Positions 471 through 20,994 of a stretch of 43,124 nt of DNA are shown one piece after another (positions within the stretch are counted from its first letter, which is position 1; each line of letters opens with the position of its first letter). The stretch comes from Nemertoderma westbladi. Lineage: Eukaryota > Animalia > Xenacoelomorpha. The notes beneath the pieces were generated by a model. It did no database searches. It was not told the origin of the DNA and saw only the letters and a list, made by a program, of their open reading frames with translations. The position numbers and the translations under genes were made by a program. The stretch is taken from contig JAUCBJ010005950.1 in assembly GCA_032718475.1 (NCBI GenBank), positions 1-43,124 of the forward strand. The letters run 5' to 3'.

Positions 471-3400
471 GGGCATTTGTAAAACGAGGATACCAGCAAA
501 ATCCGCGGATCCTGTTGCGGATAACCATAGAAGCAATGACGGATCCCAGTAGGATCCGCGGATCCTAGAAACCACGGATCCGCGGATCCAATAATAGTCT
601 ATGGTATCCGCATTATACAAATTTGTAAAACGCGGATCCCATAGAAAACCATTAAGGCAGCGGATCCCATAGACACCATTGAATAACCTTTACATGTCTC
701 TTATGGTGTCCGCTGTTTACAAATCTGTAAAGAGCGGATCCCGTTCAAACAATGCAATTGCTTGATTCTGTATGTAGGGCAATTGTAGGCCTACATACTC
801 ATACAGACATACCTTCATACCAGCATGTCAATGTAAATAACTTAATGAGGATGTGCGCCCTAATATCACCCCAGCACAGCAGTTGGATCTCAAACAACTC
901 CGAAATAACAAGAATTTAGCATTCCGTAAAGGTGACAAAACTGGTAATATTATTTTATTGGATAAATCTGCTAAGGAATATGAGATCCTTCGAATTTTGG
1001 GTGATAAGAAACATATGAGAAACTACGCAAAGACCCTACTGCACGATTTCGTGTTGAATGCCGATCGTTATTAGATTCCCTTGCTATTGGGAACCAACGG
1101 CTTCGCCATCACCTCTTCCCTAATACCTTCACTACCGGCCATATCTTTATAACTCTTAAAGACCATAAACCACGTGACGAATGGGTAACCCACCCTAATG
1201 GTGCCATAATCCCAAAAGGTAGACCTATTATATCTAATACGGACGCATTTTTTAAACCCTTATCCAAAATGATGCACTACTACCTGCACCCTTTAGTTAC
1301 TACTGCCGATAACTATCTAAAAAGCTCTTTGGATCTCAAACAAACCATGCCTACAACAACTAATAATTCCCATTTTACTTTAGTTACTATTGATGTAATA
1401 GACATGTTTACCGCCATCCCTCATGAATTGGGTATTGAGGCTACCATGCATGCACTTTCTGAGGATCCTACGTTACCTGAACGTTCTATTTTTACACCAA
1501 CTCAACTCGCAGCAATTTTACGGTTTCTTTTATACCACAACTTTTTCTGTTACTCAGAATATGTACTACCTGCAAATCGCAGGAGCACCTATGGGCGGTC
1601 ACCACAGTAGTGATTATTCTATTATCAGTTCGTACAAAGTACTCAAGAGGGCGATAACTATTTCGCTACGGACTCCTTCATTCTTTCGTACTCTGGTGGA
1701 TGATAGTTTCGCAATTTACGATGAGCGACTAACTGATGAGCATTTCGAGTTCATGAAGACCGCATTCAACTCAGCTTGTAGGAATTTATATAATAGTGAA
1801 TAGTGATGCCATCCAATTTAAAATGGAGTACTCCCATGCTAGTGTCGACTACCTCGATCTAACGATTGCTGCTAATGCCTACACCCTTAGAACTCGTTTA
1901 TTTAGAAAACCAATGGCTAATAAACTACCTATTATGTACTCTAGTTTCCACCATAAACCTACGTTACGGGCAGTGGTGAAATCTGAAATTTTGCGTATTC
2001 GCCGTTTAACTGACTCAAACCATTTGTTCACATGTTATAAACACCAGTACCTCGAGTTGTGTGAGAACCGAGGCTATCCGCTGGATTTCCTCCTCTCCCT
2101 CCATGCATCAAACCCAACACCTCTTGGTCCAGTGCCGATCACGCAGCAGCCGTCTTTACCAACAGAGGGGGATGGTCCATCAGCACCCCAAAATTTGAAT
2201 AAGACTACATCGAATGGGCCAAAATACACCTCTATATATCTCCCTACGACCCCACAGTTCCTGCCTGTCCTAGCGCCCGTTATCCGCAAATATAATGCTG
2301 ACTTGCGTTCGCTAGGTATTAGTGTCCTAAAATTAAAGTGTCGAAATTAAGTATAATTCATCCCTCTCCAGGGGAAATCGACGCTAATCACACCTGATTA
2401 CTCTCAAAAATAAAACTATCCTGTTCTATTGACTTTAGTTTATTGTTTTGGTTAGAATAACGTACTATTGTAACCTGCTCCCTTCCTTTAATTGATATTT
2501 AACATTGAGACAGACATTAAGCTCGCCGAGATGGGATTTGAGGCAACCCCCCCCCCCCCCCCCCCTAATTTCAAATTTACCCTAATATTTTATTTTTGAT
2601 AGCGTGCAACGCAATGAAATTCTTTGACTAGATGCTTTTTTATTATAAAGTTATATCCGGTTCACCCCTATTCGCCATATAGTATGTTATACATAGTTAT
2701 AAGAACCCTATGAGATTAGAGACATTCTGAAAAAGCCGCGAAGGATTACAGAGTCAGGCTATCACAATCGTATGAAGTAGATTATCACAACAATGCAAGT
2801 AAATAAATAGTTATTTCATTATTGTCATTCGTTATTTCTATGTTTGATTAGACATCGATATGTTTTGTTTCGACAAATATATTGATATACAAAATAAACT
2901 AAAATATCACTGTATTTTTTTTATATAAATCACGAATATAAACGAGACCAAACAGTAAATTACAATAATAATATAATATATAACATCTTGTGTACTGTAC
3001 ATCATGCCCTGGAATACAGTCTCATAATTAATTAACTACTAAAGTCTTACATAATACAAATCTTAATGAGATCGCTTTGGACGACCATATCCAGCTATTT
3101 CTCATCACATTCAGCATATTTGGAATCCTTGTTAATTAAGTCTACCACCTATTTCACAGTAACCAACGGTTGCTATAAGGTTGAGGAAAAAGGACTGGTG
3201 CAATATCGACGTACAGTAGTACTGGTACCTACAGCAAGGAGCCAATAATAAAGCCAAAAAAAATATAAAAGCCAAACGCCAGTAAATCATACTGTAACCG
3301 GTAGGCCTACCCCACGGGCTATTACCTCTCCGACAGACAGCGTAACAGCAACAGCCCCTATACTGCAGTACTGCTATACAGCTATAGGCCTATAGCAGCT

Positions 3401-3822: not shown

Positions 3823-3969
3823 TACGTAAGGAGACTTCTTGATTAACTTTCGATAAGGCGTTTAACCGGTCCTACTAATTACCCCAACCTACCACAATCT
3901 ACCCCAACCTACCACAATCTACCCCAACCTACCACAATCTACCGCAATCTACCCCAACAATTCGATAGA

Positions 3970-5462
3970 GGCATCTAATTACCACAATATTATTTTACAA
4001 TGGCGTCTAATTACCACAATATACAGAACGCAAGTGTCTATTTACCACAAGACTACACTGCATCTAATTACCACAATATTATTTTACAATGGCGTCTAAT
4101 GTCTAATTACCACAATATACAGAACTCAAGTGTCTATTTACCACAAGACTAAACTGCATCTAATTACCACACAGCCACAATATTATTTTACAATGGCGTC
4201 TAATTACCACAATATACAGAACTCAAGTGTCTATTTACCACAAGACTACACTACACTGCAACTAATTACCACAATATTATTTTACAATGGCGTCTAATTA
4301 CCACAATATACAGAACTCAAGTGTCTATTTACCACAAGACTACACTGCATCTAATTACCACAATATTATTTTACAATGGTGTCTAATTACCACAATATAC
4401 AGAACGCAAGTGTCTATTTACCACAAGACTACACTGCATCTAATTACCACAATATTATTTTACATTGGCATCTAATTACCACAATATACAGAACGCAAGT
4501 GTCTATTTACCACAAGACTACACTGCATCTAATTACCACAATATTATTTTACATTGGCATCTAATTACCACAATATACAGAACGCAAGTGTCTATTTACC
4601 ACAAGACTACACTGCATCTAATTACCACAATATTATTTTACAATGGCGTCTAATGTCTAATTACCACAATATACAGAACTCAAGTGTCTATTTACCACAA
4701 GACTACACTGCATCTAATTACCACAATATTATTTTACATTGGCATCTAATTACCACAATATACAGAACTCAAGTGTCTACTTACCACAAGACTACACTGC
4801 ATCTAATTACCACAATATTATTTTACATTATTAGCATCTAATTACCACAATATACAGAACGCAAGTGTCTATTTACCACAAGACTACACTGCATCTAATT
4901 ACCACAATATTATTTTACAATGGCGTCTAATTACCACAATATACAGAACGCAAGTGTCTATTTACCACAAGACTACACTGCATCTAATTACCACAATATT
5001 ATTTTACATTGGCATCTAATTACCACAATATACAGAACGCAAGTGTCTATTTACCACAAGACTACACTGCATCTAATTACCACAATATTATTTTACAATG
5101 GCGTCTAATTACCACAATATACAGAACGCAAGTGTCTATTTACCACAAGACTACACTGCATCTAATTACCACAATATTATTTTACATTGGCATCTAATTA
5201 CCACAATATACAGAACGCAAGTGTCTATTTACCACAAGACTACACTGCATCTAATTACCACAATATTATTTTACAATGGCGTCTAATTACCACAATATAC
5301 AGAACTCAAGTGTCTATTTACCACAAGACTACACTACACTGCAACTAATTACCACAATATTATTCTACAATGGCATCTAATTACCACAATATACAGTACG
5401 GTAGTTAGTAATACTCAGTGTCTAATTACCACAAGACTTCACTAATGTCTAATTACCACAAT
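3970..5462 (+). repeat. 89-bp tandem repeat (three 26-32-bp subunits sharing TCTA(A/T)TTACCACAA), left foldback arm
   Basis: Unit = tctaattaccacaatatacagaacgcaagtg + tctatttaccacaagactacactgca + tctaattaccacaatattattttacattggca; roughly 16 copies, preceded by 10-bp ACCCCAACCT/ACCACAATCT repeats at 3880-3960. Confidence 0.95.
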
Positions 5463-5939
5463 ATATATACAATATATATACAATATATATATCGATATCG
5501 ATATATATATCGCTGAGTCGGTGCGACGGGTGCGGGGCCACCTTCGATTTAATGTAATTAATCACGTCCATTCTGTTGAAATTTGTACAGTATGAGGTTC
5601 ACATAATTTTGACTCTTGTCGCTGAAACTCTTCCACGAATAATGATGGATTGAAATAATTCTTCCACATATTTGCTACTGTAAATGTTGCTTATGATATA
5701 AATATCATTCTCCACCACCAATTGTCATCCTACAGTAAACTGTGCCCACATATCCCAGAGCACAACAGAACCCTTGCCCTTGGATTATATTTACAAGCCC
5801 TGCCCAGCTTACTGATCAATGCCCATTCAGAAAATAATCGTACAAATAATCGAGACACATCAATGAATCCGTACTTCGGTTGAGCGTTTAGATTTGTCAT
5901 TCCAATATATTTGTCAAACCTAAAAAATAATACTGTTGG

Positions 5940-6855
5940 GATTAGACACTTGCGTTCTGTATATATTGTGGTAATTAGACATTAGTGAAGTCTTGCGGTA
6001 ATTAGACACTGAGTATTAATAACTACTACCGTACTGTATATTGTGGTAATTAGACACTTGCGTTCTGTATATTGTGGTAATTAGATGCAGTGTAGTCTTG
6101 TGGTAAATAGACACTTGAGTTCTGTATATTGTGGTAATTAGATGTCATTGTTAAATAATATTGTGGTAATTAGATGCAGTGTAGTCTTGTGGTAAATAGA
6201 CACTTGAGTTCTGTATATTGTGGTAATTAGATGTCATTGTAAAATAATATTGTGGTAATTAGATGCAGTGTAGTCTTGTGGTAAATAGACACTTGCGTTC
6301 TATATATTGTGGTAATTAGATGCCAATGTAAAATAAAAAATAATATTGTGGTAATTAGATGCCATTGTAAAATAATATTGTGGTAATTAGATGCAGTGTA
6401 GTCTTGTGGTAAATAGACACTTGCGTTCTATATATTGTGGTAATTAGATGCCAATGTAAAATAATATTGTGGTAATTAGATGCAGTGTAGTCTTGTGGCA
6501 GTGTGGTAAATAGACACTTGAGTTCTGTATATTGTGGTAATTAGATGCCATTGTAAAATAATATTGTGGTAATTAGATGCAGTGTAGTCTTGTGGTAAAT
6601 AGACACTTGCGTTCTATATATTGTGTTAATTAGATGCCAAATGTAAAATAATATTGTGGTAATTAGATGCAGTGTAGTCTTGTGGTAAATAGACACTTGA
6701 GTTCTGTATATTGTGGTAATTAGATGCCAATGTAAAATAATATTGTGGTAATTAGTTGCAGTGTAGTGTAGTCTTGTGGTAAATAGACACTTGAGTTCTG
6801 TATATTGTGGTAATTAGATACCAATGTAAAATAATATTGTGGTAATTAGATGCCT
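5940..6855 (-). repeat. Same 89-bp tandem repeat in inverted orientation, right foldback arm
   Basis: Repeated TTGTGGTAATTAGA core; fewer copies than the left arm; followed by the inverted 10-bp repeats at 6865-6955. Confidence 0.95.
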
Positions 6856-7156
6856 CTATCGAATTGTTGGGGTAGATTGCGGTAGATTGTGGTAGGTTGG
6901 GGTAGATTGTGGTAGGTTGGGGTAGATTGTGGTAGGTTGGGGTAGGTTGGGGTAATTAGTAGGACCCCGTTTAACAGTTTGTCCCGCTTCCAACTGCCAG
7001 TTAGGGTAGGTTTCTTAAATAGGAAGTTTTTTTTTTCCTATATAGGAAAAAGTGCTTCCTATATAGGACATTTTTGCCATTTTTCTGAACATTTTCTTCA
7101 TTATCTTTTGAAATAAATTTTAGCGGCATATTTGAATTCCTGGCTCTATCCTGTTT

Positions 7157-8139
7157 CCAGGTTGGAATTTATGTAGAGTTTGCTCAACATGTGTGGCGCG
7201 GATTAAGGATCCTGGCGCGTAGTGACAGGGGCGTGTGGCGCGGATTAAGGATCCTGGCGCGTAGTGATATGGGCGTGTGGCGCGCATTGAGGATCCTGGC
7301 CTTCCTGGCGCGAATATGGATGTAGCGATGTAGGGTTAGGTTAGGACTTAGGACAGTAGGAGGTAGCGTAGCAGTGCACTAGCAACACATCCCACTCTAC
7401 AGCTCTATTTGAAATTATTCCATAGGTTTAAAAAGATTGAAAAATGTCCGCTCGCTTCGCTCGCGTTTATACTGCAAGTCTACTCTTAGTACTGTCTGGC
7501 TGTGGACAAATGGAAATGGACAGATTGAGCATGACCATTAAAAACATGACTTATTGTTTCAAAAGTTTTTCAATTGTCAGATTCTTCAAACCAATAAAAC
7601 CATGACAGCCTGCATGATTCAGCAGAATTTCCGTGCTCGCTACGCTCGCGCCAGCTCGCAATTTAATGACATCTGCATTTCTGTATTTGAAAACAGTCGG
7701 TTTGCCAACTTTAGGCCTAAATGTTAAATTTAAATGTTAAAATTTTCGTGCTCGCTACCTGGCTACGCTCGCATCTTGATCACATCTGCATTTAAAAATA
7801 GCCTAGTCAGTTGACGTTGACCTACTACTACAGTCAGACAGTACTACTACTACAACTACAGCACTATCTGACTATTGCTGTCGGACAGTCCAGACTGCAT
7901 TTATGTTAACATAATTGGAAAATTTCCGTGCTCGCTACGCTCGCATTTTAATGTTAACATACTGTAGGACTGTAGCGTACGGCTACAAAATTATAAACTG
8001 ATAAATTATTACAATTAAGCAATTACTGCAAAATTTCATAGTCAATTGTTGGCTTGGCGCGCATTAGATATCATGGCTGGCGCGATTTTCGTTTAACCAG
8101 AACGCGTGTGGCGCGCTTTTTGTCAGTATTCCATATAGG
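7157..8139. mobile_element. ~980-bp non-autonomous insertion with 8-bp TSD (hAT- or P-like) interrupting the left TIR of the 9.66-kb element
   Basis: TCCTGTTT at 7149-7156 and 8140-8147, single in the uninterrupted right TIR; imperfect ends CCAGGTTGGAAT / ATTCCATATAGG; subterminal GCGTGTGGCGCG repeats and four GCTCGCT(A/T)CGCTCGC motifs. Confidence 0.7.
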
Positions 8140-9480
8140 TCCTGTTTGGGGGCCTCCAGTCTGTGATTGTTGACAATCAGATCTGTTGTGCATTGTCACA
8201 TCTATACATCCTGACTGTTGATTCTCAATTAAATTTGGTTTTAAATTTGGTTTTCTATTCTACAACATTCCTCACGTTTATTGTTTTGGTTCCTTTCAAC
8301 TCGCCTCTGTAACCTGCTCCTTTACTAACCTGCCTGGTTTTGGAGGCCCCAAACAGGATAATCCCGAATTCCTGGTTATTGCAAGTTAATCTTTACTACA
8401 TTTGTTGTGAAAACTAGAAAAAAACTATCTGTGCGTTCGCTTTCTATAGCCATTTTAAAAACGTTACTTTTTCCGAGAATTTCTTATATAGGAAATATTT
8501 TTTGGACTTCCTACAGTATTTAGGAGTTTAACTTATTTCTTAATTAAAATATTTTATGTCTTGATTTTTCTTAATTAATAAAAATTATGACTTGCCAGTT
8601 CAATTTAAGGCGATGTTATTAATGTAGAGTGCGATTAATTACTGTAAACTTCGGAGCGCGAACTTTGTTCCTAAAATGTCTGAATGTGAAAATGCGAATT
8701 CACATCGAACTTTGTTCCTATTTTTGCGAATTTCGTTCCTATTTGAGTGAATTTTGTTCCTATGAAATTTAATTAGTCTGTCTGTCTCGCAAATCTATTG
8801 CGAATTTTGTTCCACTCACAATTACAGTACTGCAGTAGCTATACTTACGGTAGATGAAAAACAACAGGCATTCTGAAATTAACTTTCCCACGATTTAACA
8901 CAATAGTATTAGATTGAAAATGAAACTTTTACTTACTTCGAGAATCATTAACATAAGTTAATTTTGCTTTATAAATTATCTTACCGCCAGTATAGTGGCG
9001 CACATTGAGCGCAAGTGAAATAATTTATAGTTTATTGTTTTGGTTAGAAAACACCGCCACTGTAACCTGCTCCTTTCCATTAATGTTCTTAATTAAATGA
9101 AGCTAAATGCACAGGGGCAGCTGCCGGGGGCCCGTAAGTCGGAAGAGGCCCGCAAGTTGGGAGAAATTTACCGAACATTATCTCACCGATAAAACAACCT
9201 CATTTATTTATTAATTTCTGACTGTTCAATAAATATTTATATTCCAGTGGTGGAGGTGAATGTGCTGAGCGATGTGCCAATTTTAACAATGATAGTGCAT
9301 TGGATTGGTACGTTAATTATGAGTGTAGGCCTATTAAGCAGTTAAATGCTCATAATAGTATCGTATAATTATTGTTGATAATATTTTAATTATTTTAATC
9401 ACTGCGCTGAATCTTACGGAAGTAAATTTTATTTTGTTCCTTTCTAATTCTAATTATTAATTATTGTAAAAATAATATTG

Positions 9481-9676
9481 TGTAGTGATGGCGTCTAGCC
9501 ACGAAATGAAAACTTATCAAAACTCCAGTTCGAGTCTTTGCTGAAGGCATACTGCAGTACAGTCGTACCATTCTGTAGGTCGGCCTAATAACAGAATACT
9601 TTACTCTCTAGGGTTGCTAGGCAACCGTAATAACAAAGTTTTGAGACTGTATAATAATCTATGTGGGGCTGCCACA
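9481..9676 (-). repeat. Gypsy 3' LTR (polypurine tract at 9677-9694)
   Basis: 196-bp direct repeat of 13636-13831 with 2 mismatches seen; adjacent C run reads as a G-tract on the minus strand. Confidence 0.95.
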
Positions 9677-9708
9677 TGACCCCCCCCCCCCCCCAGTCTC
9701 GAAACGTA

Positions 9709-12700
9709 TTACAGATAATCAGGTGGACGGACCGTCCGGCCCGATCGAGTTTGTACGGGCGGTTGGGCTGGGGTTGGTGGTTTTTGCGTTAGTACCGGCG
9801 GTGTAGGAGGTACCGGAGGTGCATTCGGGGGTCGACCTCGGCGCCGCGGTTGGCCGAGAACGACCGGCTCGGTAAAATCGAGATGGGCCGGTTTGAGTCG
9901 GTCGACTGAAATCGTTTCAGTTCGACCGCCCATCTCGATCTTAAATGTTTTGGGTAAGGCCCCTCGTAGGGGCGTTCGAATGGCGTCCGGTGGGCGTCGC
10001 GCCGGACGAAAACGTAGGTAGCGTCATGGAGGTCCGGTGGAACCGACGACGGAGTCAGTCCGTGGCGTGACGTCGGTACCGGAGCGAACCGTCCGACCGT
10101 ATCCCGGAGTTGAGGGAGGACCGTGGACGGCGAGTGCTGGGCGCCCGTAGCCGGCGGAAGGAACTCGCCCGGGACGGTGAGGGGGGCACCGTATACCAGC
10201 TCGGCGGAGGAGGTCCCCAAGTCGTCCTTGGGAGCGGTCCGGATTCCGAGGAGAACCCACGGCAACTCGTCGACCCAATCGGGGCCGGTGAGCGAGGCCC
10301 GCATGCCGCAGGGCGGACTTTAGGTGGCGGTGGAAACGTTCCACCAGTCCGTTCGCCTGCGGGTGGTAGGCCGTGGTGCGTGGGTTGGGTGCCCAGCAGC
10401 TGGTTGATGGCGGACCAGAGCTGGGAGGTAAACTGCGAACCGCGGTCGGAGGAGAGATCCGCGGGGACGCCGAACCGAGATATCCAGTTGGAGATGAGAG
10501 CCCGGGCGCAACTCTCGGTGGAGGTCTCGGTGAGGGGCACGGCCTCTGGCCACCGAGTGAAACGGTCTACCATCGTCAGCAGGTGAGTGAACCCGCGCGA
10601 TGGTGGTAGAGGGCCGACCAGATCCATGTGGATGTGGTCGAACCGGCGGTGGGGGGTGGCGAAGGTGCCGAGGGGCGCGCGGACGTGGCGTTGCACTTTG
10701 GAAGACTGGCAAGGGATGCAGGTCTTCGCCCACTCGCCCACCTCTTTGCGGAGGCCGTGCCACACGAACCTGTTGGCGACGAGTTTCTTGGTGGTACGAG
10801 CGCCGGGGTGAGACAGGCCGTGTAGGGCGTCGGAGACGCGCCGTCGCCAGGCGACGGGGACGACGGGGCGCGGGTGTCCGAGAGAAACGTCGCGAAGTAG
10901 AGTGGCGTTGGCGGGGGCGAGCGGGACGTCTTCCAGTTGGAGGCCGGACACGGCGGAGCGGTAGGTTGGCAGCTCGGGGTCGGCGAGTTGGGCAGCCGCC
11001 ATAGCCGTATAGTCAAGGCCGGGGAGGAGGGTTCGAACCGCGCTGACGGTAGTCCTGGAGAGCGCATCCGCCACACCGTTGTCTTTGCCGGCGACGTGTT
11101 CGATCGCCGTGGTGAACTCGGAAATGTAGGCGATGTGCCGTTGTTGCCGATTCGACCACGGGTCGCTGATCTTGGCGAATGCGAACGTCAGGGGTTTGTG
11201 GTCTGTGTAGGCGGTGAATACGCGGCCCTCCAGGTAGTACCGGAAGTGGCGAACAGCGAGGTACAGCGCGAGGAGTTCCCGGTCGAACGCGCTGTACTTC
11301 ACCTCCGGGAGTCGAAGTTGGCGGCTGAAGAACGCCAGGGGGCGCCACGAGTCGCCGACGAGCTGTTCTAGAACGGCGCCCACTGCCGTGCCGGATGCGT
11401 CCACGGTGAGCGCCGTCGGTGCGTTGGCGTTGGGGTGGGCGAGCATCGTGGCGTTGGCGAGGGCTTCCTTGGCGTTCCGGAACGCCGCCGCCATGTCGGG
11501 GGTCCAGTCGAGGGACTTGGGTTTACCGGCAAGGGCCGTGTAGAGGGGCCGCATCATGGCGCCGGCCGCGGGTACGAACCGATGATAGAAGTTCACCATC
11601 CCCACGAACTCCTGCAGGCCCTTGACGGTGGTCGGCTGGGTGAACTCCCGGATGGTGGCGACCTTGTCGGGGAGTGGGACGGCGCCGTGGGCCGAGATTC
11701 GGTGGCCGAGGAAGTCGATGGTCGACCGACCGAACTCGCACTTGGCGAGGTTGATCACGAGGCCGTGTTCTTGGAGGCGTGTGAAGAGCTGACGGAGGTG
11801 GTCACGGTGTTCCTTGGGGGACCGACTCGCGACGAGGACGTCGTCTAGGTAGACGAAGAGGAAGTCGAGTCCCTGGCACACCGTGTCCATCAGTCTCTGG
11901 AAGGCCTGGGCCGCGTTCTTCAGCCCGAACGGCATTCGAAGAAATTCAAACAGGCCGAACGGGGTTATAACCGCGGTCTTGGCGATGTCGGCCTCGGTTA
12001 CGGGGATCTGGTGGTAGCCGCGCACCAGATCGATCTTAGAAAAGATCTTCGCCCCAGCCAGTCTGGAGGAGAAGTCCTGGATATGGGGGATGGGGTATCG
12101 GTCCGCAGTCGTGGCGTCGTTGAGGCGTCGGTAGTCGCCACACGGCCGCCATCCACCCGAGGGTTTAGGGGCCATGTGGAGGGGTGACGCCCAGGGACTG
12201 TTGGACCGGCGGATGATCCCCATCTCCTCCATCTTCCGGAACTCGTCCCGCGCGATCTTGAGTTTGTCTGGAGGCAGATGACGGGCGCGGGAGTAGACCG
12301 GGGGTCCCTCGGTGGGGATGTAATGTTCGACCCCGTGTTTCGCGGTGGGGTCGGAGAAGCGAGGGATCGTAATATCGGGGAACTCGGCGAGGAGCCGAGC
12401 GAACTCGTCGTCCGAGGCGGTAACAGAACCGAGGTGGGGGGCGTGGCCCGTAGTCCGCCCGCACGGGATCGAGGTCAACGTCTCGGCGTCGACCAGACGG
12501 CGGCCTCTCAGGTCGACCAACATGTTGTTCGCTCGGAGGAAGTCGGCTCCGAGGAGAGGCTGGGCGACGTCGGCCGCGATAAACTTCCACTGGAACCGGC
12601 GGGAGTGGAAGTCGAGTTTGACGGAGCGGTCGCCGTACGTTCGAATGTACGTTTTGTTGGCGGCGAGGAGGGGCGGCCCGTTCTGTCCCGAACGTTCCTC

Positions 12701-12852
12701 GCGAGTCGTCGCGGGAATAACGCTTACCTCCGCCCCGGTGTCGACCAAGAAGCGTTGCCCGGAAACGCGGTCCCAGGCTGCCAGGCAAACAGCAGCAGGT
12801 CGGTGTGGCCGGCCGTTGTAGCTGCTACAAACGGCCGGCCGGGGCGTTTCCC
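9709..12852 (-). pseudogene. pol: Gypsy pol polyprotein (protease, RT, RNase H, integrase) with frameshifts
   Basis: LVDTGAEVS protease, [21 protein letters not shown] RNase H, HGLSH..CIPC and DLVGP..SDRG..ERFH integrase; frame breaks near 12780, 10383, 10305 and 9955. Confidence 0.92.
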
Positions 12853-13529
12853 TGGTAACTGCAGGGCGGGCGGCACTTCCTGGCTGTGGGGCCGAACGTC
12901 TGGTGATAATAGCACCAGTCCGGGTTCGAGTTCGGGGCCCGCGGGGCGGGAGTCGACGCCGACGAGGAGTTCTTGCCGGTTCGCTGCGGCGGGACCGGCA
13001 TCGGTTTCCTGACGGCGTGGGCCGCGAGTGAGGTCTGCCGGGAGGCCTCCCACAGCGCGTCGGCCCGGTCCGCAACCCTGTCGAGGTCGCGGAAGTCCTC
13101 CTCCGTGAGTTGGAGGCGGATTGCGGCGGGCATCTGCCGGAGGAAGTCCTCCTCGAAGAGGAGTCCCGCGTTGTCGTCGCCGAGGAGCGCCTGCATTTCT
13201 CCGAGGAGTTGCGAGGGGCGCCGGTCACCGAGGCCGTCGAGGTCCCAGAGTCGGGCTGCGCGCTCGCGTCGGTAGAGCCCGAAGGCCTTGAGAAGTTGGC
13301 CCTTGAGTTTGAGGTACTTCTCAGTAGCGGGAGGGTTCTGGATGAGTTTTAGGAGGCGAGTGGCTGTCTCCTGGTCGAGGGCCCCCACCACGTAATAGTA
13401 TTTTGTAGCGTCCTCGGTGATGCTGCGAATGTGGAACTGTGCCTCCGCCTGGGCGAACCACACCTCGGGTTGGGTGGTCCAGAACGGAGGCAGTTTAATA
13501 GAAACGGCGTTGGCGGTCGCTTCGGCCAT
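12825..13529 (-). CDS. gag: Gypsy Gag (234 aa) with C-terminal CHCC zinc knuckle
   Basis: Intact [35 protein letters not shown]...[19 protein letters not shown]; first ATG at 13529. Confidence 0.9.
12846..12852 (-). promoter_or_regulatory. -1 ribosomal frameshift slippery heptamer G GGA AAC at gag/pol junction
   Basis: X XXY YYZ heptamer in the gag frame just before the gag stop; the -1 frame reads [24 protein letters not shown], which joins the protease once the 8-bp insertion at 12778-12785 is removed. Confidence 0.8.
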
Positions 13530-13620
13530 TGTCGTCAACACAGTTTCGGTCTGTCGGTGGCTGTTCCAGTTCGATTGCAGGATCGTGTTGCGAGTCGCGG
13601 TCTCAAGAGTTCGTCTTGAG

Positions 13621-13634
13621 ACGCTGGGTCACCA
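13621..13634 (-). promoter_or_regulatory. Primer binding site, tRNA-Trp-like
   Basis: TGGTGACCCAGCGT one base inside the 5' LTR; TGGTGACCC is complementary to the 3' end of eukaryotic tRNA-Trp, the primer typical of the CsRn1 clade. Confidence 0.75.
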
Positions 13635-13635
13635 A

Positions 13636-13831
13636 TGTAGTGATGGCGTCTAGCCACGAAATGAAAACTTATCAAAACTCCAGTTCGAGTCTTTGCTGAA
13701 GGCATAGTGCAGTACAGTCGTACCATTCTGTAGGTCGGCCTAATAACAGAATACGTTACTCTCTAGGGTTGCTAGGCAACCGTAATAACAAAGTTTTGAG
13801 ACTGTATAATAATCTATGTGGGGCTGCCACA
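13636..13831 (-). repeat. Gypsy 5' LTR
   Basis: 196-bp TG..CA repeat, ~99% identical to 9481-9676. Confidence 0.95.
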
Positions 13832-13833
13832 AT

Positions 13834-15669
13834 GGGGTAGACGACTCGGAAAAATTTTTTCGAGTTTTCGTTGGTTTCAAGGGAAAGAGCATGTGAAAAA
13901 ACCCAAGAGAGCAATTTGACTTCAAAAAAATTAATATTGGCCGAGTTATAGCGATTTTAAAACGCAAAACTAGCAACATCGAAAAATCGGGCCGTTTCAG
14001 AAACCTGCACTAGTGACGTCAGCGATAACACAGCAACAGTTGTCAAGCGCAGTTGATTGGCTAATATAAAGTATAATATTGCAGTATCTAAAATAAATCA
14101 AATAATAAATGTAGCTAAGTATTTATTTGGATGTGTATTTATGTTGTGTTAAGAATCGATTCTAGGACAGCCGTATGGAGGCGATTATTCTAGAATAATA
14201 TTTATTTCGCCCATACCTGTACCGTAGAGCTGTAGCTAAAAATAGATATAGCTAGCTAAATACTGCCAGGCGTTTCATTAATCTATTTTTTAATTGTTTT
14301 TACAGCGAATAATGCGGGATTGGTAGATTAGAACTAGATGGAAATTATTTCGTTTTTTTTTGTCAGTTCACTGTAAAGTGTTACTGGTACTAGTTGCCCG
14401 TGTCACCATTATTCTGCCTTTCATAATAGCTGTTTTGGTTTGACATCCAAAAATATAAAAATACCAAAAAATATCCAAAACATATTATTTTGGGCTATTG
14501 ATTTGTCATATTTGACATATTTTGGCTAGTTACATGTGAAAAAAAATGTTTTAAATAAAATAACAAATGTTTGTGGTAGCTAGTGTTTTCAATGGTATTT
14601 ACTGTTTTAATAATGTAGCTAGTGTTTTTATAAAATACCACAAAATCTTATTTTTTGATGCCATTCCAGATGCCATTACACCAACGCATGTGGTAGAAGT
14701 AAAATGTCCAACATCAAAACATGCCATTCAAGAATCGTATCTTTCACAATCGATCACAATCGTAAATTCATGGCACAAATCCAACTTCAAATGCATCTTT
14801 GCAATAAACAATTGGCCTTGTTTTGCGTCGCAGATCCATCTTTTGAAATAAATGGCGAAGTGAAAATAGTTGAAGTATCATATGATTCCATATACATGCA
14901 AAGTTTACTGAAAAGTAGTAGTAGCTTCTGGAAGGAATATATATTTCCCAAAATTGTGAAAAAATAGATGATTAAAAAATTTAAATTATAGTTATAGTTC
15001 AAATAAATTCTGATTAATGCTGATTGTATTGAGATGGCAGCTGAATATATTTTTACTATACGTCTTCAATTACAGCTACATGGACTAACTATCAATGCTA
15101 TTTGGAATTCAATAATTTAACTTATATAAAAATAATTGCAATAGAAAAAGTGCGAATCCACAATCTAATCCAAAGTAATCTAAGTTTTGAAGCTGAATAA
15201 AACATCAATAAGCTACTGTATTTCTACCACCTGGCAGTTTTAGCTACAAAATATGTTTTATTTTAATAGCTAACAACTGTACGGTTTGGGAGAAATAAAT
15301 ATTATTCTGGAATATTTAACTTGTTATGAATCAATTGCCGCCATAAAGATATCAAATAATGTATTCTTAACACAACACCAAAACACACCAAATAAATATT
15401 AGCTACATTATTTATTTTAGTTACTAAGAGATTTATATTGTACAGTATAGTAACCAATGAACATTTACTGAGCTGCACTAGTGACGTCACTAGTGCAGGT
15501 TTCTGAAACGGCCCGATTTTTCGATGTTGCTAATTTTGCGTGTTTAAATCGCTATAACTCGGCCAATGTTATTATTTTATAAGTAAAATTGCTCTCTGGG
15601 GTTTTTTCACATGCTCTTTCACATGAAACCAACGAAAACTCGAAAAAAAATTTCCGAGTCGTCTACCCC
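13834..15669. mobile_element. ISL2EU-type (PHIS group) non-autonomous DNA transposon, ~188-bp TIRs, AT TSD
   Basis: TIRs 13834-14021 and 15482-15669 starting GGGGTAGACG; AT at 13832-13833 and 15670-15671; internal YqaJ remnant. AT TSD plus YqaJ ORF are ISL2EU hallmarks. Confidence 0.8.
14650..14967 (+). pseudogene. YqaJ / lambda-exonuclease-like fragment
   Basis: DAIPDAITPTHVVEVKCP (PD..ExK) then, in a shifted frame, KFMAQIQLQMHLCNKQLALFCV...FWKEYIFPKI. Confidence 0.75.
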
Positions 15670-15674
15670 ATTGC

Positions 15675-16120
15675 ATCAATAGTTAATAATTATTTAAAAT
15701 ATTATTGCAAAGCAGCAAAATAATTATTAATTAAGCCTACTGGTATTGTAAAAATAATATTGCATGAATAATTATTAATCTGTTGATTATTACAAAAACA
15801 TTATTGCTTGATGCATAAATAATCATTAGGCCTACCGGTAATTATTATAAAATAACATTGCATTAATTATTATAAAAATAATATTGCATTAATTATTATA
15901 AAAATAATATTGCATTAATAATTTATTAATTATTTTAAAAATATTATTATAAAAATAATATTGCATGAATAATTATTAATCTGTTAATTATTACAAAAAT
16001 ATTATTGTTTGATCCATAAATAATCATTAATTATTATAAAAATAATATGCATTAATAATTATTAATTATTTAAAAATATTATTATTCAATAATTATTACT
16101 GTAATAATTATTGTAAAAAA
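15675..16120. repeat. Degenerate AT-rich minisatellite (AAAATAATATTGCAT..AATTATT)
   Basis: Repeated units; the same motif ends at 9480, so this array was the Gypsy target. Confidence 0.8.
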
Positions 16121-17271
16121 TATCCCTCTGTGTTGGAGGGATGTAGTTATTGCTGTATTATCTGAAACTGCAAACCATATACAGATATAGCCAGATAGAC
16201 TAGACAGGATGACGGGGTAACTAACAGTATCCCAGCCCCAGCCCTATCAGGTCAGCTCAGTATCTGGAATGAACTGCTGGAAATTATATATATTTCCTTA
16301 TTTAAGAAAAATATATACATAAAATTGTTTAAAAAAGTTAAAAATAAGTAAAGTAAAAAGAAATAAGTTAAACTCCTAAATAGGAAGTCCAAAAATATTT
16401 CCTATATAAGAAATTCTCGGAAAAAGTGTTTTTAAAATGGCTATAGAAAGCGAGAAAGCCTATCGGAACTCTGAATAGACTGGAGGCCCCCAAACAGGAT
16501 AGAGCCAGGAATTCAAATATGCCGCTAAAATTTATTTCAAAAGATAACGAAGAAAATGTTAAGAAAAATGGCAAAAATTTCCTATATAGGAAGCACTTTT
16601 TCCTATATAGGAAGAAAAAAAACTTCCTCTATTTATGAAACCTACCCTAACTGACTGCGTTATGGTATTCACAGTGGTCTTATCTTCTCGCTGGATCCAA
16701 TTCAACATTATATATATATATATATATCTGGGCGCCCTACATGTGCCGATGGACCGTTTCAGATATTGTGCCATGATTCCAAATCATTGTCCGTTCTTCC
16801 GGTCTACTACACAGACGTTCCACACCGAGGGAATATTGTTGTGCCATTGTTGAATAAAGTATTTCATAAAAGGTATAAATTGTTGATAATGCGCAATGCG
16901 CGTTAATAATTATTTGCAGTCGATGGGTTAAATGCCCGACTTCATTTAGATGTAAAAATGTCAAGGTCAAGGTCAATCGGACAATTGCTTTTATCTCCTT
17001 GTTGAGAATAATATATAATCTCGTGAGACCAAGTTTCTGAATTTCGCGAAAGATTGACAAATGTGAAAATAACAAATTTGATGTTTTAATATAATTTGGA
17101 AGGAGTTCCTGAACAGCAGGAATTAAGTAATTAATGGTAATTAATGTTCTTAATTAAATAAAACTAAATCAAAATATTGGGCAAATGTCCTATCTAATAA
17201 ACTAGCCTATCTGCCTATTGGTCAAGCTGTCAAGTGTCCTATTGGGAAAATGGCCATACCAGGATCTAGTT

Positions 17272-17520
17272 GGCACTACTGCATTATAACGACACCCCAG
17301 CACTTACCGGTATATAGTATACTCTGATATACATAATCTTGTATTACGTGTTAACATTCGTTTATTGTTTTGGTTCCCCTAACTCGCCTCTGTAACGCTC
17401 CTTTACTAACCTGCCTAGAGCCACATGTCTATTATCAAATTATAATGTAAAGTCTATTTTCAAATTATAATGTAAAATGCAGTGCTGGCGCTGGGGGTGT
17501 CGTTATAATGCAGTGGTGCC
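17272..17520. mobile_element. 249-bp MITE with 9-bp TSD (MULE-type)
   Basis: ~30-bp TIRs GGCACTACTGCATTATAACGACACCCC / GGGGTGTCGTTATAATGCAGTGGTGCC; GATCTAGTT at 17263-17271 and 17521-17529. Confidence 0.85.
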
Positions 17521-17893
17521 GATCTAGTTATTGGGGAAGTGTCTCCTAGGGAAAGTGTCTTTCTTTATACTGTTATAAGGTTTAAATATTATTGGGTAGT
17601 TGGGCAAAAGTCTCATTGGAGAAAGTCTCCGTATTGATTGGGCATCTGGCAGTAACCAGGTATCCAATGATTCGTCTGCTTGTTATAGTGCAAGTTACTC
17701 ATTGGGCAAGTGGTATATTGGGCAAGTCAGCAAGTGTGAAGTGACTGCACCCAGCTGCCCAATTGAACTGTGAGACTGAGACAGCTCGACAGCTGGACTG
17801 TCAACACTGTCTGACTGTTGCAGTGTTGTTTTAATGCTGATTGATATCCCAGTACAGTATACGGTACCGGTCAATTCTGCAATTAATTTCAAT

Positions 17894-18889
17894 ATGTTAA
17901 AACAACTCTCCGCCCGTATTATCCGTTACAACGACGACTTCTTGGCGATCGTCCAAGCGGTCGCGTTTATCGAGGATGCTGTCCGTTACCGGTCCATCTT
18001 CCACAAGATCGACGGACGTAGTCTCCGCATCTACCAATGCTACTACTCGCTGCTGGCCCGCTGGACCGTGCACCTCGCCATACTCGCCATTCTAGGCCTC
18101 GCTTTCTTCGAATTCCCCTCCAGTATGAGCCCAACAGCGGACCTGAAACAACCAGGACAATCCGTTGGGGTCGTCGTCCCTTGCGGTATAACCGAAGCAA
18201 TCGAACTCATCTGTTGGTTCATCTTCCTACTCGATCTCCTTACTAAATCCTACATAATCGGTACTAAACGCCTCCTAAACTCCCCGTGGCTGTTCGCTTA
18301 CGGCGTCGTACTTTCTGTCTACCTCTGCGACTGGTGCGTCTCCGTCGCTCTCATGTGCCAATACTCCTTCAGAATTCGACGTCTCATTCGACCGTTTTTT
18401 CTCCTACAAAACTCCTCGATGATGAAGAAAACATTCGACTGCATCCGTCGAACTCTCCCCGAGGTATTCTCCGTGCTAATGCTCCTATTCCTCCACTTAT
18501 ATTTCTTTAGTTTATTCGGGATGCTTTTGTTTAAAGACGTCGATAAACCCGGAAGCGTTAAACCATCCCCTTCCGACGAAGGGGTGAGTTACTTCTACGC
18601 CCTAAACGATTCAGTTCTTTCGCTTCTAGTTCTCCTCACCACCGCGAATAACCCCGATGTAATGATGCCGGCATACGATAAACACCGACTGAGCGCGTTA
18701 TTCTTCATTCTCTTCGTGTTTATCGGTACTTTCTGTTGTCTCAACATGCTGACCGCGGTTATCTTCAACCAGTTCCGGGGGTATCTCCTTAATTCGATGG
18801 GTTCTTCTTTGCGGCGGCGTCGGTTGGCTGTTCTCGCCGCCTTCTGGGTTCTCAGCCGCGACGCCATACGACTCAATGAGGTAGCCGAG
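17894..18889 (+). CDS. TPCN2: Two-pore channel 2, coding exon 1 (domain I)
   Basis: QAVAFIEDAVRYRSI, RIRRLIRPFFLLQNSSMMKKT, filter LLTTANNPDVM, QFRGYL..RRRL match animal TPC2. Donor GAG|GTAAAC in phase 0 (alternative donor after 18880). Start could be 17834 or an unseen upstream exon. Confidence 0.92.
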
Positions 18890-19719
18890 GTAAACCAATT
18901 AATTTCGATTTATCGCCTTCTTTACGTTTAGTACAGTACAGTAGTATGTTAAGTCTCAGCTTTATCGGCACTTGTCAGTTGCAGCGAGTTGTAATGAAGC
19001 AGATTACAATTTGCATCATTACATTACAACTCGTCGAATGTTTTACTTTGCAATGCTGCAATGGGGTGTGCTCTTAGTAAAATATGGGCAACCATATAAA
19101 ATAAAAGCTCGAGTTAGAAATTAATATCTAACGGTATTTAATAATAGTCCAGCAAAAACATGGTAACATAAGTAACAAGTGACTGTTTCGTCACCCTTTG
19201 GAACTAATATTGCGATAGTCTTTTTCTTTTAGTAGTTAACTTATAGATAAAGCCCCCCCCCCCCCCCCCCCCCCCTCTCCCTCTATATGGCAATTCATAT
19301 CAATCAGCTGAATGACTTCAGCTGATTAACGATTGCATGCAGCTTCTTGTTGCAACAGTTATTTTTTAGTTTGTCTCGCTTGTACAGATTGATATACAAT
19401 TTATTTACTTCTTACTTGCCTCGCATTCCCGGGACCGTCATACTACCCGTTCTTGCCTTTTCTTATGTAGTAGTCTCTGTTTATTAATGAGAGTTGGGGG
19501 TTATTGGTCTGGCATCAACCCTAATTTAAATGATATAGGCCTAATTTTCGTTGGGCTCTCTCAGCTTACCTGGCAAAGTGGAGTGAGTGACTAATGGTAA
19601 TTATTAATTTGTCATTGGACTAAATGATAATGTTAGACATTTTTAGCGGTAAGTCTTCACTATTTTGTATTCCAAGTTAATTTTCCAACAATAAATTAAT
19701 AAATTACTTCCCAATATAG

Positions 19720-20994
19720 GACCGCGAGGAGGCGGATTGGGACTGCGACGGGGACCGCGGCGACCCGCCGATCTACTACGGAGTCCCTACCAACCTGGCG
19801 CGCACCGTAGTCGTCAAGGCCACCATGCCGTCCCACAGCCGCGCGGCCATCCTGCGCGAGTTGGACACCGCGAGCTCCCATCTCACCTCGCGTCGGTTCT
19901 CCGAGATCCTCTCGCTGCTGGACTCCGGCCGCTCGGTCCGGGACCCGCCCCCCATCCGATGGGCAACCCGACCGCTCCTCCTCCTCCCTCAACGCGTATT
20001 CGCTCACTCCCGCTATATATATTTCTCCCTTCTCGTCTCCCTATTGAACGTTATATGTATGTCCGTCCTCATCGTGGTCCGCCAAGACGAAGCCTTCGGG
20101 TTGAACAACTCCGCACTCCTCCGTATCAACGCGTTGTTCACCGTCTGGTACGTCATCGAACTTCCGCTGAGGATCGCGTCGCTCGGCCCCCGGAAGTTCT
20201 TCTACACGAACGCGAATACCTACGATTGTATCGTTACTCTGGGGCTGTTCGCGATGGGTTGTTGGTACGTCATCGCTTTCGTGGCTCAACCTCACCTTCA
20301 GCAGACTTCGCAATCCGCGTCCCTCTACTTCCTAACTCGCTTCCTCAACATGCTGATACTCCTGCGTTTACTGCGGTTGATCCCCCATGTTAGTTCCATG
20401 TCTCTCGTCGCTTCCAGCATGCTCGATCTCTTCAGCAACATGCGCCCGTTCGCCGGTATTCTCATTATCGTTTACTACATATTCGCAGTCCTCGGGGTCG
20501 CTCTCTTTGAGGGCGTCGTCCAACCGCCCGCCAACGTCTCCAGTATCGTCTACGAGTGCGGCTCCTTCGAGCAACTCAACTACTGGGGTAATAACTTCAA
20601 CGAATTCTCCAGCGCGTTGGTCGTCCTATGGGATGTGATGGTCGTGAATAATTGGGGCGTCTTCTTGAAGGCTTTCAGTCGGTTCTCGGGGCCGTGGTCG
20701 CAGCTGTACTTCGTCGCGTGGTGGCTCGTCAGCGTCATCGTCGGGGTCAACCTCTTCGTGGCCCTGATCCTAGAGAACTTCGTGTGCCGCTGGGACCGTT
20801 GGAGTCAGCAGCGGCGGGGTCTGGGAGGCGCGGGCGAGCCGTCCGAGTTCGGGCAGAGCATCCACGAGGTGTTCCGGGGGAGTCTGGTCGAACCGGACGA
20901 GCACGAACTCCGGGTGGAACTGGCGAGCCACGCCTATCTAAAGGTGCCCCTCCCGTCCAGACAGTACGGCGCCTCCACTGGGGGGGACCTGTAG
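19720..20994 (+). CDS. TPCN2: Two-pore channel 2, coding exon 2 (linker and domain II)
   Basis: Acceptor TTCCCAATATAG| at 19719; phase 0 open from DREEADW to TAG at 20994; CGSFEQLNYWGNNF, filter VMVVNNW, WWLVSVIVGVNLFVALILENF. Joined product ~756 aa. Confidence 0.92.
   Translation, partial: DREEADWDCDGDRGDPPIYYGVPTNLARTVVVKATMPSHSRAAILRELDTASSHLTSRRFSEILSLLDSGRSVRDPPPIRWATRPLLLLPQRVFAHSRYIYFSLLVSLLNVICMSVLIVVRQDEAFGLNNSALLRINALFTVWYVIELPLRIASLGPRKFFYTNANTYDCIVTLGLFAMGCWYVIAFVAQPHLQQTSQSASLYFLTRFLNMLILLRLLRLIPHVSSMSLVASSMLDLFSNMRPFAGILIIVYYIFAVLGVALFEGVVQPPANVSSIVYECGSFEQLNYWGNNFNEFSSALVVLWDVMVVNNWGVFLKAFSRFSGPWSQLYFVAWWLVSVIVGVNLFVALILENFVCRWDRWSQQRRGLGGAGEPSEFGQSIHEVFRGSLVEPDEHELRVELASHAYLKVPLPSRQYGASTGGDL

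Follow-up and report, generated by a model that had tools for sequence, protein, structure and literature searches.

The locus and a candidate donor element

The window, the whole 43,124-nt stretch of Nemertoderma westbladi DNA that we analysed, carries a TPC2 gene, satellite arrays and a non-coding, non-autonomous CAG...CTG element at 6998–16653. This element has long inverted repeats and lies between identical copies of ACTGC (6993–6997 and 16654–16658), and it measures about 3.5 kb once nested gypsy and ISL2EU-like insertions are subtracted. The outer part of its left inverted repeat (6998–7156, forward strand) begins with CAG and is 95.7% identical to 16492–16653 over 162 columns. An interrupted inner part (8140–8541, forward strand) survives as pieces at 8140–8162 and 8437–8541, which match 16358–16499 at 100% over 23 and 91% over 105 positions by blastn, for a repeat of about 300 bp in total. 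The right inverted repeat (16358–16653, reverse strand) finishes with CTG. The ACTGC duplication is exact at 5 bp, with no sixth matching base, and the inverted repeat stops at it without continuing outward.

The first and last three bases of the element are the two trinucleotides found at the centre of a recurrent small motif described below, which we read as a scar. Judged from its ends, the element appears to be the donor type that these scars require; the preliminary description had predicted such an element, with CAG...CTG ends and a 5-bp duplication, and had overlooked this copy. As it is the one intact donor in the window, its 5-bp duplication rests on a single case, and ACTGC departs from the target bias of the scars at one position.

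A fixed trinucleotide between duplicated 5-bp words

The window contains 31 exact motifs in which CAG or CTG separates two copies of a 5-bp word, in about even numbers (14 CAG, 17 CTG). They include all 11 motifs listed in the preliminary description, each where it had been placed, and 20 more. Pairing the left arm of one CAG/CTG site with the right arm of another gave an expectation of 1.42±1.12 motifs (maximum 5 over 100 offsets), against 31 at 1,108 sites with the satellite at 32.6–34.2 kb excluded. Masking seven repeat regions left 28 motifs at 1,025 sites against 1.4±1.2 under the same control. Left unmasked, the satellite, in which the same CAG context recurs, raised the expectation to 12.3±6.2 (maximum 32). 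Local Markov shuffles of orders 1–3 yielded 1.2, 2.4 and 8.2 motifs, with a maximum of 17 (60 runs each).

The excess is specific to both arm length and centre. Enrichment of CAG/CTG centres with 5-bp arms, a check proposed in the preliminary description, held in the window (31 versus 1.4), whereas 4-bp arms showed no excess (4 observed versus 6.5 expected); 3-bp arms gave 26 versus 18.8 and 6-bp arms 3 versus 0.4. Motifs occurred at 25.9 per 1,000 CAG/CTG sites and at 11.2 per 1,000 for the next centre, with higher rates only in poly-G/C runs. Other centres with 5-bp arms also topped the permutation null, 2- to 4.5-fold, among them TGT/ACA (10 versus 2.2) and CAA/TTG (9 versus 2.2), so this null underestimates ordinary local duplication, and a fair estimate of the CAG/CTG excess is therefore about 5- to 20-fold. 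CAC/GTG centres numbered 3 against 1.2 expected. One-mismatch arms were in excess too (39 versus 17.6±3.4), which suggests older scars.

These controls bear on whether the motif could be imitated by slippage during replication, by templated insertions during repair or by stacked scars of the TA (Tc1-like) type. TACAGTA and TACTGTA are themselves in excess (26 and 25 versus 7.0 and 5.4), four motifs admit a reading as stacked TA scars, a fifth falls within a TCTG repeat, and the inflation at other centres points the same way. Such mimicry covers only about 5 of the 31 motifs, however, and leaves unexplained a fixed centre that is missing from the empty site and accompanied by varied 5-base words. 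The specificity for arm length and centre largely refutes it, and we rate it as very improbable.

Insertions of eight bases

Comparison with copies that lack the motif indicates insertion. Roughly 6 of the 31 motifs are backed as 8-base insertions by copies without the 8 bases, four of them by empty sister copies inside the window; the other 25 have no empty counterpart among window copies and sister contigs. CCACA-CAG-CCACA in the left satellite arm (4167–4179) has 24 empty sister units, TGTGG-CAG-TGTGG in the right arm (6494–6506) has 21–23, and GCTAC-CTG-GCTAC (7754–7766) has two empty sister copies that align with an 8-letter gap, in agreement with the preliminary description, which had called all three insertions. 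TTAAT-CTG-TTAAT (15976–15988), in an AT-rich repeat, has three empty-like units (9451, 16021 and 16056) and a second filled copy near 15771 with one mismatch. Read in one orientation, the word TGTGG carries CTG at 4167 and CAG at 6494. Since one word bears both centres, scars are favoured over slippage at 6494; the slippage within the satellite that the preliminary description had entertained there is disfavoured.

The two scars of the gypsy element sit where high-depth sister contigs come up shorter. CCAGG-CTG-CCAGG (12773–12785) lies where the pol-like frame changes in the ORF list, and over this stretch two of the contigs, record 13 of X2 and record 20 of X3, each lack 8 letters, their overlap pointing to the scar as the place; the earlier reading of 12773 as an insertion is backed in this way, with its position deduced. 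TCGGT-CTG-TCGGT (13546–13558) lies upstream of gypsy gag. A third contig (X1 record 5) lacks 16 letters over 12482–13615, with no gap over 13062–13517, which would place a gap at 13546. Gap positions in sister contigs were deduced from overall shortening, with indel rows listed for 12 of 162. Motif 7395 is apparently present in a sister contig as well (X4 record 23). In X3 record 21 (16629–16994) a gap of 8 letters may be the TA microsatellite and was left uncounted. For no site were the empty, occupied and scarred states all observed.

The empty sites also speak to NuwaI-type (PHIS) elements, which duplicate 5'-CWG-3' (PMC4482050) and might have produced the motifs by targeting CWG. The empty copies have no CWG; CWG belongs to the insertion, and it is the flank that is duplicated. 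CWG as a duplicated target is ruled out at these sites, and an origin from NuwaI-type elements is extremely unlikely overall.

Target words and clustering

The duplicated words are biased towards palindromy without symmetrising. G at positions 1–2 or C at positions 4–5 fills 6 of 124 cells against 19.7% locally (p=2e-6, for a statistic picked after seeing the data), and the middle position is A or T in 24 of 31 words. This bias bears on the idea that extremely truncated non-LTR retrotransposons, or another target-primed writer, left insertions ending in CAG or CTG. Decayed non-LTR elements are present in the window, seen as reverse-transcriptase-like frames by eye and as a DUF6451 match below the Pfam cutoff. 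Target-primed insertions vary in length; here, by contrast, the duplication is fixed at 5 bp and the insert at 3 bases, the target bias is palindromic and a matching DNA element is present. We hold such an origin to be highly unlikely.

The motifs are clustered. Eight exact motifs lie in the left body of the donor element between 7349 and 8837 (7349, 7395, 7754, 7830, 7863, 7993, 8675 and 8825), and seven lie upstream of or at the TPC2 start between 17206 and 17884 (17206, 17222, 17565, 17723, 17806, 17816 and 17872), where the density upstream of the gene reaches 5.6 per kb. A sister contig (X4) covering 17770–18825 is 8 letters shorter than the window. In a tree, the TPC2 of the window sits on a long branch within the bilaterian animals, with no supported group. 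The other exact motifs, spread over 3361–42900 (3361, 3374, 16177, 19051, 22176, 28689, 32553, 41188, 41510, 41857 and 42888), yielded no empty sister in a search of the window. Those at 3361, 8825, 32553 and 41510 could be stacked TA-type scars, and 22176 sits inside a TCTG repeat.

Two variants depart from the 3-base centre. CCGCA-TG-CCGCA (10299–10310), also noted in the preliminary description and present, lies in the gypsy integrase region at a reading-frame change in the ORF list and is a possible 2-base variant. A 2-base CA/TG centre is not established as a class of its own: its 16 cases against 6.6 expected (maximum 14) fall inside the inflation of the null. At 7601, within the left-body cluster, CATGA-CAGCCTG-CATGA retains both element ends.

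Such retention would also follow if the same elements were lost by transposase-independent deletion between their long inverted repeats, or by abortive gap repair after clean excision, with no unusual cleavage. The donor repeats, at about 300 bp, are able to fold back, and since C and G are common to CAG and CTG, deletion at a one-base microhomology could yield either centre. These routes predict varied retained lengths and a preference for the homology of the 5-base duplication, whereas the 3-base class alone is clearly in excess; longer centres show none (4-base 3 versus 1.5, 5-base 2 versus 1.4). We regard them as unlikely. Probably, the motifs are excision footprints of a DNA transposon with 5-bp duplications in which the cut on the non-transferred strand falls three bases within the element, and the likely source is a cut-and-paste family like the element at 6998–16653.

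Comparison with known transposons

The footprint combines features of separate superfamilies. As described in PMC6943129 and PMC7351741, the canonical Sleeping Beauty/Tc1-mariner footprint is TA-CAG-TA or TA-CTG-TA, and Tc1/mariner excision leaves the terminal 2–4 bases between both target copies (PMC6943129). The scars here likewise keep both target copies with a terminal CAG or CTG between them, an arrangement due in those systems, on the same accounts, to a cut of the non-transferred strand 3 nt inside, and their centres are the donor's terminal three bases. In contrast, the target is not TA: the duplicated word is variable, with 31 varied 5-bp words of palindromic bias and ACTGC flanking the donor, and the net gain is 8 bases rather than 5.

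The hAT5 group within the Blackjack lineage shares the 5-bp duplication (as outlined in PMC9004415 and PMC12730594) and the G at the third position of hAT ends (as given in PMC1131882), here in CAG. Other hATs that have been studied excise through flank hairpins and leave joints that are flank-copied or deleted (PMC5499845, PMC3499496); here, in contrast, element ends are retained and just 2 of 31 centres match the flank in reverse complement, the other 29 not being flank-copied. We found no hAT5 footprint data in the literature searched. Transib, RAG-like and wider CMCT-clade elements also make 5-bp duplications, and the clade has CA...TG ends. Transib itself, as portrayed in PMC1131882, PMC12730594 and bioRxiv 2023.08.20.553239, has RSS-like CAC ends, GC-rich targets and flank hairpins, unlike the CAG ends and mostly A/T-centred targets (24 of 31) seen here. 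Ginger2/TDD ends are TGT (PMC2836005), whereas the donor ends are CAG. By sequence, the donor ends fit hAT5 and fail Transib (CAC) and Tc1/mariner (TA).

A proposed excision pathway

The scars can be accounted for in four steps. The element sits between two copies of its 5-bp target, as seen for the copy at 6998–16653. Transposase would then cut the transferred strand at the element end and its complement three bases into the element, leaving a 3-base 3' overhang on each flank. The next step is modelled on Sleeping Beauty: the CAG overhangs would anneal around a mismatched middle base, and end joining would fix CAG or CTG between both target copies, adding 8 bases net. Rounds of insertion and excision at favoured places, such as upstream of TPC2, may finally have piled scars up over a long time. 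The sequence fits two forms of second cut: hydrolysis, the Tc1/mariner mode, or a looped hairpin that is opened again at that position. Near 8511 one inverted repeat differs from the other by 5 inserted bases, a TA-type scar, so this host mends 3-base overhangs in this way.

Excision chemistry is known for few eukaryotic transposon superfamilies and follows three pathways (PMC5499845). Studied superfamilies with 5-bp duplications excise through flank hairpins, and the 5+3+5 scar departs from that: it implies a hairpin-type lineage (hAT5, for instance) whose first nick has shifted into the element, a Tc1-like lineage that dropped TA, or an unstudied superfamily that cuts in this way. We give roughly even chances to a lineage outside Tc1/mariner, hAT5 or unclassified, having switched to a mariner-like cut three bases inside its ends while keeping 5-bp duplications, and acting in this animal as a standing +8-base mutator, responsible for about 1% of the window and for several scars per kb before a gene. 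We found no description of a 5+3+5 footprint for elements with 5-bp duplications in the literature searched; hAT5 reports or a supplement may hold one.

Scars of this form are easy to count and would serve as searchable fossils of germline transposition and target preference, including for families otherwise known just as unclassified elements. Exact motifs and the one-mismatch excess together give about 50 scars in 43 kb. They are a notable source of small insertions in the host: they can shift reading frames, and they cluster ahead of a gene.

Search for a transposase and an autonomous partner

Pfam searches found no transposase among 83 ORFs, comprising 81 frames of at least 66 aa and two TPC2 exons. 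The set was drawn from 161 stop-to-stop frames outside gypsy, TPC2 and satellites, leaving out 12 frames in LTR, BEL-like and tandem stretches. Nor was one found in six frames of the element's left body (7160–9480) or in 21 read-through frames from that body, the ISL2EU-like body and metagenome locus L013. The 24-base end had no match in prokaryote genomes, and a degenerate end matched 12 loci in viral contigs, all chance-like. In metagenome contigs the 17-base end occurred at 21 loci, all of them lacking a partner end downstream, and 20 of these look like chance. Positions 1–320 of L013 resembled a hAT C-terminus by eye, but searching gave 0 hits and the assignment is not supported. L013 carries two related ends that face outward.

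Excess of duplicated words around CAG and CTG

The window combines an excess of 5-bp words repeated around CAG or CTG, insertion of such motifs at several sites, and a donor element with matching ends and duplication. Scanning the whole window for a word, three bases and the same word yielded 31 exact motifs centred on CTG (17) or CAG (14), comprising all 11 named in a preliminary, sequence-only description and a further 20; only poly-G and poly-C runs out-counted these centres. The proposed spacer preference held within the window, with 25.9 matching 5-bp arms per 1,000 occurrences of CAG/CTG and 11.2 for the next non-homopolymer centres. When left and right arms were taken from different CAG/CTG sites and one satellite was excluded, 1.42±1.12 matches were expected (maximum 5 in 100 offsets) against 31 observed among 1,108 sites. 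Masking seven repeat regions gave 28 of 1,025 against 1.4±1.2; with the satellite kept, the expectation was 12.3±6.2 by permutation and 1.2 to 8.2 by local Markov shuffling. Because other centres, too, reach as much as 4.5 times the permutation null, we set the fair excess at about 5- to 20-fold. The feature is real.

The proposed specificity for 5-bp arms held within the window: 4-base arms showed no excess (4 versus 6.5 expected), and 6-base arms numbered 3 versus 0.4. Under the permutation control, 2-base arms around CAG/CTG numbered 152 versus 83.7, 51 of them TA. Arms with one mismatch (39 versus 17.6±3.4) or two (120 versus 99.6±9.0) are as expected if scars build up over time.

Ordinary Tc1-like TA scars are also abundant window-wide relative to an order-2 expectation: TACAGTA (26 versus 7.0), TACTGTA (25 versus 5.4), TACCGGTA (7 versus 0.7), TAGGCCTA (12 versus 0.5) and TAGCTA (21 versus 7.7). 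Comparing the donor's two inverted repeats reveals one such 5-base insertion, TA to TACAGTA, near 8511. Since these scars occur beside the 5+3+5 motifs, two scar-making families appear to have been active in the host. A fold-back element at 3868-6966, which we take to be Mutator-like, has arms of 89-bp satellite arrays and an 8-bp flanking duplication, CGTTTAAC. Numerous poly-G/poly-C runs of 12-22 bases across the window often border repeats or truncated retroelements.

Motifs as insertions

Repeat copies without the 8 bases identify individual motifs as insertions. As first proposed, the motifs at 4167 and 6494, in satellite arms, have 24 and 21-23 empty sister units in the window, and that at 7754 has two; the motif at 15976 has three empty-like units. 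The pol-like reading indeed shifts frame at 12773, and changes frame a second time at 10299. Five public sequencing runs contain part of the window, and we compared contigs of four (X1-X4) over 6900-20000. High-depth gypsy-family contigs were 8 letters shorter in X2 (12545-13030) and X3 (12675-13424), and 16 shorter in X1 (12482-13615). Because these differences overlap and 13062-13517 is gap-free, one 8-letter gap would fall at 12773 and the other most likely at 13546, judging from the 12 of 162 indel rows listed. The window and compared contigs yielded no counterpart lacking the 8 bases for 25 of the 31 motifs; the 7395 motif is seemingly present in an X4 contig.

A candidate donor element

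The predicted CAG...CTG element with a 5-bp duplication is present at 6998-16653, flanked on each side by ACTGC, and is the only perfect-ended pair with matching flanks that our search of the window found. Its inverted repeats share 95.7% identity across 162 aligned columns and extend to about 300 bp, the left one interrupted. A gypsy element whose LTRs lie at 9481-9676 and 13636-13831 is nested within it, as is a GG...CC element (13833-15670) with AT on both flanks; without these two, the donor measures about 3.5 kb. The GG...CC element directly adjoins the end of the gypsy LTR, carries an exonuclease-like remnant by eye with no Pfam match, and is ISL2EU-like as judged from its duplication. 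The left inverted repeat is split by a repeated, CpG-rich insert (7160-8140) that carries six exact motifs and apparently an 8-bp duplication, TCCTGTTT.

Contig depth, which does not equal copy number, is well above that of the TPC2 gene (17780-20994) at the donor ends, and so hints that they belong to a repeated family. At 16524-16653, a very deep contig of the cDNA-like run X4 begins with adapter at 16524 and reads outward across the right inverted repeat, which suggests a strongly expressed transcript starting within this repeat family.

No transposase was found by Pfam in 83 of the window's 161 reading frames outside gypsy, TPC2 and satellites or in the six frames of the donor's left body, and end searches of metagenome contigs, viral contigs and prokaryote genomes found no coding partner with donor-type ends. 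One metagenome contig, L013, has two donor-related ends (610-700) that face outward 9 bp apart, with shared subterminal repeats. Its 1,425 bases also contain one 5+CTG+5 motif (at 945), and its flank had no protein match. L013 offers a hint that the family may occur in another organism.

Motif anatomy and proposed mechanism

The duplicated words vary but seldom have G in position 1 or 2 or C in position 4 or 5 (6 of 124 cells versus 19.7% nearby; p=2e-6, for a statistic picked post hoc), and the middle base is A or T in 24 of the 31. Such palindromic bias is of the kind expected from a dimeric transposase; the donor duplication ACTGC is one position off it. Motifs cluster, with 10 of 30 gaps at most 150 bases (3.1 expected, p=0.0002), and their density per kb is 5.6 upstream of TPC2, 3.2 in the donor left body and 0.3 over the window's right half. 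The 17206 motif overlaps a donor-end look-alike (17199-17213) matching at 13 of 16 bases by eye, and may be a solo right end instead of a simple scar.

That the motifs are excision footprints of a 5-bp-duplication element is well supported and quite probable. Excision, cut position and repair route are what we infer: a cut 3 nt inside the non-transferred strand would leave CAG overhangs, repaired to 5+CAG+5 or 5+CTG+5. Sleeping Beauty, according to PMC7351741 and PMC6943129, is cut 3 nt inside on that strand, and its donor CAG overhangs are repaired to TACAGTA or TACTGTA. Just 2 of 31 motifs have a centre that reverse-complements the flank, so the centre is not hairpin-copied sequence. Longer retained ends show no excess in the window, the single exception being CAG-C-CTG at 7601. 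The product would be identical if the nick lay three bases inside and a looped hairpin then formed and reopened there; if the excision reading is right, the sequence therefore tells where the nick falls, not which chemistry makes the second cut.

The donor passes in full as neither hAT5 nor Tc1/mariner: ends and duplication alone would place it near hAT5, whereas the footprint behaves like that of Tc1/mariner. According to the literature, transposases of the hAT, Transib and MULE groups generate hairpins on the flanking DNA, and those of Tc1/mariner make two cuts (PMC5499845); the hAT element TcBuster leaves small flank-copied insertions plus deletions (PMC3499496); hAT5 duplicates 5 bp (PMC9004415, PMC12730594); the third end base is G in hAT and C in RSS-like Transib (PMC1131882); ITm duplications are generally TA (PMC10045372); Ginger2 ends are TGT (PMC2836005); and NuwaI duplicates CWG (PMC4482050). 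PMC7481187, PMC4455052, PMC6004678 and bioRxiv 2023.08.20.553239 contributed nothing decisive, and full-text literature outside Repbase Reports and most subscription papers yielded no description of a footprint of 5+CAG/CTG+5 form. A rough split would give hAT5 about one third of the weight as transposase source, a TA-less Tc1-like lineage about one quarter, and other or unclassified candidates the remainder.

Sample differences near TPC2

An 8-letter between-sample difference exists close to the TPC2 motif cluster, since over 17770-18825 the X4 contig is 8 letters shorter whereas X1 matches the window exactly; the difference is one of length and is not assignable to a particular motif. X1 may be the source of the window sequence. 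In X2 and X3, which come from one sample, gaps over this stretch add up to 21 letters, with a net gain of 5. X4 behaves like cDNA, with adapter and a GT..AG joint at 18887-19718, apparently the only intron of the two-pore channel 2 gene. In a tree of 35 from the 120 TPC2 matches listed, the gene sits on a long branch among bilaterians; the host is accordingly a bilaterian animal, with no close relative among the 120. About 250 bases of the TPC2 intron are absent from X2 and X3.
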